The translations under genes and the position numbers were made by a program. Shown one piece after another: positions 36,520 through 38,255 of a stretch of DNA of 64,000 bases. The stretch lies in NCBI GenBank assembly GCA_022143435.1, contig GCA_022143435.1_3941.1; one strand, 5' to 3'. Each line of letters starts with the position of its first letter. The first letter of the stretch is position 1. Source of the DNA: a phage. The notes under the pieces were generated by a model. The model had not been told where the DNA came from. It searched no databases and was given only the letters and a program-made list of their open reading frames with translations.

Positions 36520-36770
36520 CATCACTTAAGAGCCTTTCTAAGAGGGTTTTTAAGTGAGGTTCGGTATGGTACAGTAGGCTCTGGCTTGGTATGGTTTGGT
36601 GATGTTCGGTGTGGTACGGCGGTGTAAGGTATGGTATGGGTAGTTAGTCTCAGCTACATTAAAATGAGACTTACCTTTTTAAAAGGTCTTTAAAAGGGTC
36701 TTTTAATAAGGTATGGTGAGGTAGGGTTAGGCGAGGTCAGGTTTGGTAAGGTATGGGTGGATGGTAGCAG
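36520..36770 (+). repeat. Composite non-coding repeat, copy A: hairpin, (NGGTN)n pentamer tract, hairpin, 2x AAGGTCTTTTAA, (NGGTN)n tract
   Basis: Aligns with 38045-38255; see findings. Confidence 0.8.
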
Positions 36771-36849
36771 CCACGTTAAAAATCTACCAAGTTTCTAAAG
36801 AGTCTTCTGTTGAGGGTTCTTTACAAACAACTTAACAATCAACTAAAGT

Positions 36850-37452
36850 GTGGAGCTAAATGCTATGAAACTGTTAAATATCAAAATCACTGGTACTCGT
36901 CCTTTCCTGAGCCATGCTGATACTCTGTCAGACCCTTTAAACCCTCTGACAAAATATCACAAGTCTCTGTCCAGTAAACGTAAAAAGACTGACGAAGACT
37001 ATGCGCTCTTAGCAGAAAGTCAACTGGTAACTTCTTGTTGCTACGATGAGCAACTAGGTTTTGTTATGAATGGTGAGATGATTGAGGCTTGTATCAAGTC
37101 TGGTGCAAAACTCAACAAACTTGGTAAGGTAATTGACCGAGCCATTATGCTGACAGATGTAGTCTTCCCAATGACTATCAAGAACTGTCCAGCAAACCCA
37201 CAAGAACTTGCTAAGAATCCAGATTTTATCTATGCTAAATCTGTTAAGATTGGTACAGCACGAGTTATGAGCTACCGTCCAATCTTCCGTGATTGGTCTG
37301 TAGAGTTTGGTTTGATGTTCGATGAAGAGCAAATTACCCGAGAGGAACTCCTGATGGTTCTGGAAAATGCTGGCAACCTTTGTGGTGTAGGTGATTGGCG
37401 TCCACGCTTTGGTCGTTTTTCTGTAGAAGTTATTTCAGAAGGTAACGTTTAA
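36850..37452 (+). CDS. Hypothetical protein (probable start ATG 36865 after GGAG RBS)
   Basis: ORF bracketed by the composite repeats. Confidence 0.45.
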
Positions 37453-37454
37453 TT

Positions 37455-37895
37455 ATGAATACAAAAGCATTAGCAGCAAAGTTTAGTTACGGTGACACTG
37501 TATCACATTCTGAGATGGACACCTTCTTAGGTATTGTGAAGCCAACTTATCAAGGTGACATTGTTAAGTACGAAGATGAAATGAAGGCTTATGCACTTAC
37601 ACGTCTAAACCGACTTGAGAAGTTTATTGAAAAGCTTCTTAAAGAAGAGAAGATTTATCTGGTTGCTTCAATGGGTGTTGGTTATCGTGTGGTTGAACCT
37701 AAGCATCAAGCAACTATTGCAAAACGTAAAATGTCTGGTAAGATTGGTCGTGCTTTAAAGCAAGCCACTCAAGCGATTGAGAATGTGAATACTATGGCAC
37801 TTAGTCATCAAGAACGTTCACGACTGATTGAACAGCAAAACCATTTAGCTGCTATGAAAGCTAACATTAACAAGCAACGTAGAAAACCTTTCTAA
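37455..37895 (+). CDS. Hypothetical protein
   Basis: ORF; no recognised motif. Confidence 0.45.
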   Translation: MNTKALAAKFSYGDTVSHSEMDTFLGIVKPTYQGDIVKYEDEMKAYALTRLNRLEKFIEKLLKEEKIYLVASMGVGYRVVEPKHQATIAKRKMSGKIGRALKQATQAIENVNTMALSHQERSRLIEQQNHLAAMKANINKQRRKPF

Positions 37896-37903
37896 GTTGA
37901 CTA

Positions 37904-37930
37904 GGAAGCCTCTTCGGAGGCTCCTTTTTA
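37904..37930 (+). terminator. Rho-independent terminator (GAAGCCTC-TTCG-GAGGCTCC then TTTTT)
   Basis: Inverted repeat plus T-run. Confidence 0.6.
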
Positions 37931-38255
37931 AAAGGTCTTTTAAGAAGGTCTTTTAATGAGGTAAGGTGCGGTCTGGTAAGGCATGGTATGGTTGGGTGAG
38001 GTGAGGTATGGGTAGTTAATCGGAGCTACATTAAAATTCGATTACATCACTTAAAAGTCTTCTAAGAGGATTTTTAAGTGATGTTCGGTAGGGTCTGGTA
38101 GGGTGAGGTATGGGTAGTTAGTCTCAGCTACATTAAAATGAGACTTACCTTTTTAAAATGTCTTTAAAAGGGTCTTTTAACAAGGTATTGTATGGTGTAG
38201 TTTGGTTAGGTATGGTTAGGTGTGGTAAGGTAGGGTATGGAAGGATGGCAGTAGC
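37930..38255 (+). repeat. Composite non-coding repeat, copy B (one partial plus one full unit)
   Basis: Same element order as copy A; see findings. Confidence 0.8.

Follow-up and report, generated by a model that had tools for sequence, protein, structure and literature searches.

The hairpins that recur between positions 36456 and 38364 of a 64,000-nucleotide stretch of phage DNA (GenBank assembly GCA_022143435.1, contig GCA_022143435.1_3941.1; the whole stretch is called the window) are, with high confidence, part of a type II VIPR (Viral Interference Programmable Repeat) locus in a Felix O1-like phage. The whole window is Felixounavirus DNA, 90-94% identical to that of other felixounaviruses (BPS15Q2, wV8, dune and others). 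Two open reading frames, of 195 and 146 amino acids, lie between two intergenic blocks (36456-36864 and 37896-38364). Five units on one plan make up the blocks: each opens with a 5' hairpin, either H2 or the homologous HX, continues with 5-16 GGYNN pentamers of conserved GGY and hypervariable NN, and closes with a 33-nucleotide tail. Loci of this kind are already known and were first described in June 2026 (bioRxiv 10.64898/2026.04.26.720920).

According to the accessible part of that preprint (bioRxiv 10.64898/2026.04.26.720920, 25 June 2026), a VIPR system comprises a small RAMP homologue (Vipr), an accessory gene (vap) and vrRNAs of 9-16 YNNGG repeats. The 3' tail of the vrRNA, ~40 nucleotides long, is invariable and forms a hairpin with a pseudoknot in the clade of the model phage, Escherichia phage SUSP1. 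One vrRNA lies upstream and three lie downstream of vipr-vap1 in SUSP1, and ~100-nucleotide vrRNAs co-purify with Vipr from SUSP1 and from a P. fulva prophage. The NN dinucleotides are described as pairing with double-stranded DNA under a one-nucleotide-skip rule, the complex repressing transcription. Natural guides of the SUSP1 clade are aimed mostly at a satellite phage, and vap1 enhances protection. Other VIPR types carry hammerhead ribozymes between the guides.

The two open reading frames of the window encode proteins 97% (vipr) and 99% (vap1) identical to the SUSP1 pair. vipr (36865..37452; this and all features of the locus given below are on the + strand) encodes the 195-residue Cas7-like protein, for which the RAMP fold was found and whose invariant C-terminal motif G170..G174-D-W-R-P-R-F-G183-R-F fits the RAMP glycine-rich loop. 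As in VIPR systems, a single-domain RAMP homologue of ~20 kDa is encoded beside the repeats, and an accessory gene, here the 146-codon vap1 (37455..37895), lies directly 3' of it. The vap1 protein, a predicted DNA binder, gave no Pfam match, and a word-indexed search for its homologues returned three proteins only. Because the pair is this close to that of SUSP1, the recurring hairpins are read as vrRNA tails (first type) and as hairpins preceding the guides (second type).

An original prediction, made from the letters of the window, had named five hairpins of these two types, and direct reading of the sequence located all five where it had placed them. Those of the first type are AGTCTCA/TGAGACT around the loop GCTACATTAAAA at 36646-36671 and 38120-38145, and TAATCG(GA)/(TT)CGATTA around the same loop at 38017-38044. 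The two blocks hold all three copies of the exact 12-nucleotide loop that the 64 kb contains, each of them on the + strand; ~0.01 copies would be expected by arithmetic. Two more hairpins of this type had been overlooked (GGTAG..CTACC at 36763-36788 and GGCAG..CTGCC at 38247-38272). The second type, CATCACTTAAAA.../...TTTTAAGTGATG, is present at 38045-38083 with a weaker copy at 36520-36557; its stems had been given as 12 and 8 bp and in fact run to 16-19 bp with G.U pairs. Three further homologues, built on AAAAGGUCUUUU, had also been overlooked (~36672-36709, 37923-37959 and 38146-38183). The central proposal, a selected secondary structure serving as an RNA element or a protein recognition site, is upheld, the first-type hairpins being the 3' tails of vrRNAs.

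Four consecutive GGTNN units, with one mismatch allowed, occur 32 times in the window, on the + strand only and in the two blocks only (0.14 expected). Across 1126 units from 95 distinct arrays, preselected for at least two of three GGT matches, the frequencies of G, G and T were 0.86, 0.92 and 0.87, and the NN positions carried ~0.1 bit. The five arrays of the window hold 16, 9, 10, 5 (7) and 11 units, four of them within the 9-16 range and one short. The guide region thus has the composition of the YNNGG repeats of VIPR systems, read here as GGY/NN with hypervariable NN. Repeat analysis of the locus showed only the hairpin/pentamer units and no CRISPR array. No cas1, cas2 or other cas genes were found around the locus, where the neighbours are genes for ligase, polymerase, a helix-turn-helix (HTH) regulator and proteins of unknown function.

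The association of such arrays with Vipr extends beyond this group of phages. IMG/VR was scanned for seven perfect GGTNN units, which gave 80 viral contigs, 36 with diverse NN and 44 with simple microsatellites. Many unrelated viral contigs were found to carry 4-13 tandem arrays of 10-20 NN-diverse units with a contig-specific constant end. With a profile of the Vipr alignment, Vipr homologues were detected in 26 of the 36 NN-diverse contigs; the 44 simple-repeat contigs yielded none. Other VIPR architectures are seen in four unrelated IMG/VR loci (L069 2217-3406; L059, minus strand, 3396-3843; L058 3331-5318; L101 2251-3257), in each of which a Vipr homologue adjoins the array. One of the four is on a 388-kb contig; one such locus has 13 tandem guides, each ending in GGTAAGGAATGGTTTAATGAATTTAATTT, and another has seven guides joined by AAGGCTAATG only, without a hairpin between them.

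For the structure of the tail, 49 homologous loci were collected, of which 31 are distinct, the SUSP1 locus (L019/L025) being among them. The left anchor was the sigma-70-type promoter TTGACA-16-TATACT at 36462..36489, which matches 11 of 12 consensus positions, lies upstream of the first guide unit and is kept in all related loci. The right anchor was an A/U-rich inverted repeat followed by a U run (38273..38325), a terminator-like element at the right end of the locus that encloses the promoter of the next gene (TTGACA-17-TATTTT). The 31 distinct loci gave 26 distinct tail sequences, which were aligned without gaps. The proposed structure has 11 pairs, a 7-bp hairpin (5-bp in types c and d) and a 4-bp pseudoknot. 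The pseudoknot joins the tetranucleotide that follows the last GG, ahead of the stem, to the opening tetranucleotide of the loop. The rest of the loop is A-rich and would be the crossing loop of an H-type pseudoknot.

In the 26 tails, 93.7% of cells pair in this structure and both sides have changed in 9 of the 11 pairs. When the partners were slid by 1-3 columns as a control, pairing fell to 27-38%, and the covariation score was reached by none of 500 shuffles. Changes on both sides were found in 6 of 7 pairs of the hairpin helix and in 3 of 4 pairs of the pseudoknot helix, in which 99% of cells pair. The four tail types covary in the hairpin stem, and the pseudoknot arms vary with them as GUAG:CUAC (types a and b), GUGG:CCAC (type c) and AAGG:CCUU (type d); within type b the stem has the variants GG:CC, GG:UC and GA:UC. 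The invariable 3' tail of VIPR systems, with its hairpin and pseudoknot, is present here with double changes behind both helices. The original prediction had proposed to abandon a selected structure if homologous regions lost the stems or lacked compensatory changes; related phages keep the stems, with a G-C / G.U / A-U series in the TAATCGGA stem. Within its conserved loop, the CUAC part is paired as the 3' strand of the pseudoknot and covaries in the other tail types.

Hairpins between genes could be ordinary rho-independent terminators or 3' structures that stabilise mRNA. In favour of this, the homologous blocks carry two terminator annotations in the ASO1B record, UUACCUUUUU comes after tail type a, and the locus does contain a true terminator, a canonical intrinsic one 3' of vap1 at 37907..37930 (GC-rich stem, UUCG loop and U run), besides the terminator-like hairpin at 38273-38319. 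A terminator scan nevertheless reported only the hairpin at 37907-37922 and a site inside vipr, and none of the tails or H2/HX hairpins. The combination of a G+C-rich stem, a 3-8-nucleotide loop and a U run was found in neither the tails nor the 5' hairpins: the U run is missing from tail types b, c and d and from the H2 hairpins, and the tail loops are 12-16 nucleotides long, conserved and paired with upstream bases. The hairpins also stand always 3' of a GGYNN array, and these arrays co-occur with a RAMP gene in unrelated phages. Termination or mRNA stabilisation is accordingly a very improbable function of the repeated hairpins.

Folding separates RNA from DNA. The free energies of the two blocks were -107 and -132 kcal/mol on the + strand against -69 and -80 kcal/mol on the - strand, with z-scores against shuffles of -2.6 and -6.1, and the 5' hairpins need several G.U pairs. 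Because the stems depend on G.U pairs and the + strand folds far better, the RNA element of the original prediction is favoured and its alternative, a cruciform or double-stranded DNA site, is disfavoured.

The same evidence bears on DNA-level elements in general, that is a replication origin, iterons, a cruciform, a site for a partition protein (StbAB), an R-loop or a G-quadruplex. The locus lies among the genes for DNA polymerase, ligase and other replication functions, a strong promoter is placed immediately upstream of the blocks, the arrays are ~46% G but only 7% C on their non-template strand, and the wV8 and KhF3 records annotate direct repeats at the locus, all of which would suit such an element. 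Neither the G.U-dependent stems nor the much poorer folding of the opposite strand is expected of it, however, and a 5-nucleotide period with a conserved T and random NN is unlike iterons and needless for R-loops or G-quadruplexes. In unrelated viruses, too, the arrays go together with a Cas7-like protein that binds RNA, and the accessible part of the preprint reports RNAs that guide DNA binding in SUSP1 (bioRxiv 10.64898/2026.04.26.720920). The presence of one degenerate unit in Felix O1 and of 1-6 units in similar phages is also unlike an essential origin. A function of the blocks as DNA is therefore given only the slightest probability.

Across the related loci, promoters and hairpins are nearly invariant, and the pentamer runs vary in length and in NN with the GGT phase kept. 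Phages that are otherwise 90-99% identical have 1-6 units per locus and arrays of 4-18 pentamers. The loci fall into three size classes: ~230 nucleotides with one unit (Felix O1), ~365-386 nucleotides with two units, and 1630-1940 nucleotides with the two open reading frames and 4-6 units. In the one-unit form of Felix O1, the left end of block A runs directly into the right end of block B. Comparison of the sequences implies that the vipr-vap cassette has been gained or lost by recombination between units. To read the repeats, on the strength of these size classes and of this junction, as nothing but recombination substrates or mobile cassette boundaries of the kind seen in T4-type phages (promoter-early stem-loop, PeSL), without an RNA function, is just as far-fetched as a DNA-level element, since recombination explains the change in copy number and not the conservation of GGY with free NN, the covarying stems or the pseudoknot, and is more plausibly an outcome of having repeated guide units than the reason for them.

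Several working hypotheses gave way once VIPR and the RAMP fold were found to fit; none of them explained the strict GGY phase, the free NN and the conserved, structured 3' end together. These were a T5-like origin, iterons, an R-loop or G-quadruplex, Chi-like or RecA-preferred GT-rich DNA and primase sites, and also a Rho-proof leader, a TRAP-like attenuator, a protein-sponge small RNA and tRNA CCA-end pairing.

In the type II VIPR locus the units follow one another in this order. The first opens with hairpin H2a (CAUCACUUAAGAG...UUUUUAAGUGAGG; 36520..36557), which has 16 bp with G.U pairs and folds at -19.9 kcal/mol on the + strand and -8.4 on the - strand. It is followed by the vrRNA 1 guide region (36558..36639; 16 GGYNN units, 12 with perfect GGY) and a type a tail (36640..36671), in which GUAG (36640-43) and CUAC (36654-57) are the pseudoknot arms and the hairpin (36646-36671) consists of AGUCUCA (36646-52), a loop with the A-rich part AUUAAAA, and UGAGACU (36665-71). 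The inter-guide hairpin HX (UACCUUUUUAAAAGGUCUUUAAAAGGGUCUUUUAAUAA; 36672..36709), homologous to H2, precedes the vrRNA 2 guide region (36710..36756; 9 units), which ends in a type c tail (36757..36788) with GUGG (36757-60), GGUAG (36763-67), CCAC (36771-74) and CUACC (36784-88).

Downstream of vap1, a second HX (37923..37959), again based on AAAAGGUCUUUU and homologous to H2, leads to the vrRNA 3 guide region (37960..38011; 10 units). Its type b tail (38012..38044) has GUAG (38012-15) and CUAC (38026-29) as pseudoknot arms and a stem at 38018-38043 formed by AAUCGGA (38018-24) and UUCGAUU (38037-43) with one G.U pair. Hairpin H2b (38045..38083; 19 bp with G.U pairs, -23.2 kcal/mol on the + strand and -15.9 on the - strand) is followed by the short vrRNA 4 guide region (38087..38113), which has 5 perfect units, or 7 with the in-phase 3' arm of H2b, and by a type a tail (38114..38145) identical to that of vrRNA 1. 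A third AAAAGGUCUUUU-based HX homologous to H2 (38146..38183) precedes the vrRNA 5 guide region (38184..38240; 11 units) and a type d tail (38241..38272) with AAGG (38241-44), GGCAG (38247-51), CCUU (38255-58) and CUGCC (38268-72).

A conserved 9-bp inverted repeat, TGGTGAGTA / TACTCACCA, is present at 36477-36485 and 36510-36518, and the left arm shares bases with the -10 hexamer of the promoter before the first guide. The repeat (36477-36518) could be an operator, or a structure limited to read-through transcripts from the ligase gene.

A mechanism can be put forward largely from SUSP1. From what the accessible part of the preprint describes there, we infer for the present phage the expression of ~100-nucleotide RNAs, their maturation and loading into a ribonucleoprotein with Vipr, the one-nucleotide-skip code and repression. 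Transcripts of the + strand would carry the five guide units. If the homology with SUSP1 is a guide, the 22-kDa Cas7-like Vipr would assemble in several copies along the pentamers, gripping the GGY triplets and displaying the NN dinucleotides, and the tail would be a constant handle analogous to the repeat of a CRISPR RNA (crRNA). The complex would bind double-stranded DNA at sites that fit the NN pairs when read as NNxNNx..., and once bound would block transcription of rival mobile elements, with Vap1 enhancing the effect.

The part played by the 5' hairpins is our own suggestion. H2 and HX (16-20 bp) may be removed from the precursor as processing or boundary signals; they probably lie outside the mature RNA, because array and tail together already measure ~60-120 nucleotides. 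Candidates for the cutting are host RNase III, for which a 16-20-bp stem would be natural, and Vipr itself. In separating the guides the hairpins may be comparable to the hammerhead ribozymes of other VIPR types.

Guide units are also found where vipr is lacking. In Felix O1, one unit described as degenerate sits between the ligase gene and ORF87 (L023 2440-2680 = L360 13249-13303, minus strand) and comprises the promoter, an H2 hairpin, 11 GGYNN units and a type d tail. A profile search of all open reading frames of at least 60 amino acids detected no Vipr homologue in the Felix O1 genome (none at E<=10). Orphan guide units are also present in L026-L028, L030, L034, L040, L043, L044 and L048. 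Vipr was found in 130 phage records against 231-236 with DNA of the repeat blocks, leaving ~100 felixounaviruses with guide-like units and without vipr/vap. Such orphan guides could borrow the Vipr of a co-infecting relative or titrate Vipr as decoys; decoys, if real, would amount to RNA anti-VIPR. That H2 and HX are processing signals of type II vrRNA arrays and that the orphan guides are functional, not relics, is, as a joint claim, a speculative one that we hold to be unlikely. The role of the 5' hairpins and the orphan guides of vipr-less relatives may extend what is given in the accessible part of the preprint.

Targets of the guides were sought by exact NNx scans. vrRNA 1 gave no match in a search of one genome per species. 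vrRNA 3 gave three matches in viral contigs, none extending past the seed, and vrRNA 5 gave 73 as a raw count. vrRNA 2 gave 113, of which 61 are one conserved gene of ~320 amino acids in isolate proviruses (L173, L176-L179, L181 and 55 others). This cluster was rejected as a target and is regarded as a chance match amplified by redundancy, because the flanking units mismatch and the skip base falls on codon position 1, because the gene is absent from complete E. coli genomes, because those contigs are not a point of convergence for 79 other guides taken from related phages, and because the 52 matches outside the cluster are about as many as chance would give (~50) for a pattern of 16 fixed bases in an IMG/VR of ~1e11 bases, a size assumed here. 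For a satellite of the SUSP1 type, DNA similarity searches of complete E. coli genomes with the vrRNA block and with head-gene DNA gave no match.

Several points weigh against assignment of the locus to VIPR. These scans produced no convincing DNA target for the guides of the window. Expression, processing, ribonucleoprotein formation and targeting rest on a single preprint, which deals with a phage whose proteins are 97-99% identical. The covariation comes from four paralogous tail types and a few point changes, and so from few independent events; for tails a and c, RNAfold gives nested alternatives that compete with the pseudoknot, and the pseudoknot proposed here may differ from that of Fig. 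S9 of the preprint. vrRNA 4, with 5-7 units, is under the 9-16 range of the preprint. Rfam has no family for this RNA, and an Rfam check of 35000-40000 gave chance-level matches only (E 1-9, far below gathering scores).

The surroundings of the locus were also inspected. At 33873-34439, directly 3' of the gene for a family A DNA polymerase (31172-33901), an HNH endonuclease with an AP2 DNA-binding domain is encoded, which is probably a homing endonuclease. The GC skew rises from ~-0.15 to ~+0.16 near 31000 and returns near 42000, exactly where gene orientation changes; the + strand cluster between 31 and 42 kb comprises polymerase, ligase, the VIPR locus and the HTH regulator. The skew follows the direction of transcription, and no separate origin signal is evident. 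The first gene past the locus (38365-38748) encodes a 127-residue protein with an N-terminal hydrophobic signal-like segment (MKKILLAAAMVMAMNLPVNA) and belongs to phrog_4332.

In the accessible part of the preprint VIPR is reported as a new form of RNA-guided DNA recognition, with a discontinuous 2-in-5 code, a Cas7-like reader and a possible place as ancestor of CRISPR effectors. The present analysis indicates that the system can be spotted from raw sequence by its guide handles, and the RAMP fold, the GGY/NN statistics, the covariation of the tail and the co-occurrence of arrays with vipr, all claimed in that part of the preprint, were reproduced from sequence alone. Guide processing, orphan guides and guide targets are modest extensions of VIPR, not a new discovery. 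Existing annotation merits attention: the features labelled 'DR_4' in wV8, 'possible binding site of StbAB' in KhF3 and 'terminator' in ASO1B fall inside vrRNA blocks and are due for re-examination, as are the 'hypothetical proteins' between them, which are vipr and vap1. The Felix O1 genome paper lists other repeats and none of these.

The closest known system is the type II VIPR of SUSP1, with which the window shares the gene pair, the guide arrays, the tail sequences, the flanking hairpins and the position between DNA ligase and downstream small genes. The two differ in that two guide units lie upstream and three downstream of the genes in the window, against one and three in SUSP1. One downstream tail of the window is type b (AAUCGGA stem) and not type a. 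The window also has one exceptionally short guide, and its guides carry other NN dinucleotides than those of SUSP1, so that the targets should differ.

Class 1 CRISPR-Cas complexes (Cas7/Csm3/Cmr4 on crRNA) resemble the model of the preprint in placing several small RAMP subunits on one guide RNA, whose variable guide part is capped by a constant, structured handle. They differ from VIPR in that the VIPR guide is discontinuous, with two reading bases in every five, VIPR guides are encoded apart from one another, each with a tail to itself, and VIPR is phage-encoded and represses rather than cleaves. TRAP on the (G/U)AG repeats of the Bacillus trp leader shares the 5-nucleotide period of a triplet with 2-nucleotide spacers and the repeating protein surface; its fold is unrelated, its spacers are without information whereas those of VIPR are the information, and there is no attenuation in VIPR. 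The PeSL cassettes of T4-type phages are alike in having repeated promoter/hairpin modules that flank recombining cassettes of small genes, but they act as regulatory signals in DNA or RNA, guide nothing and have no protein partner dedicated to them.

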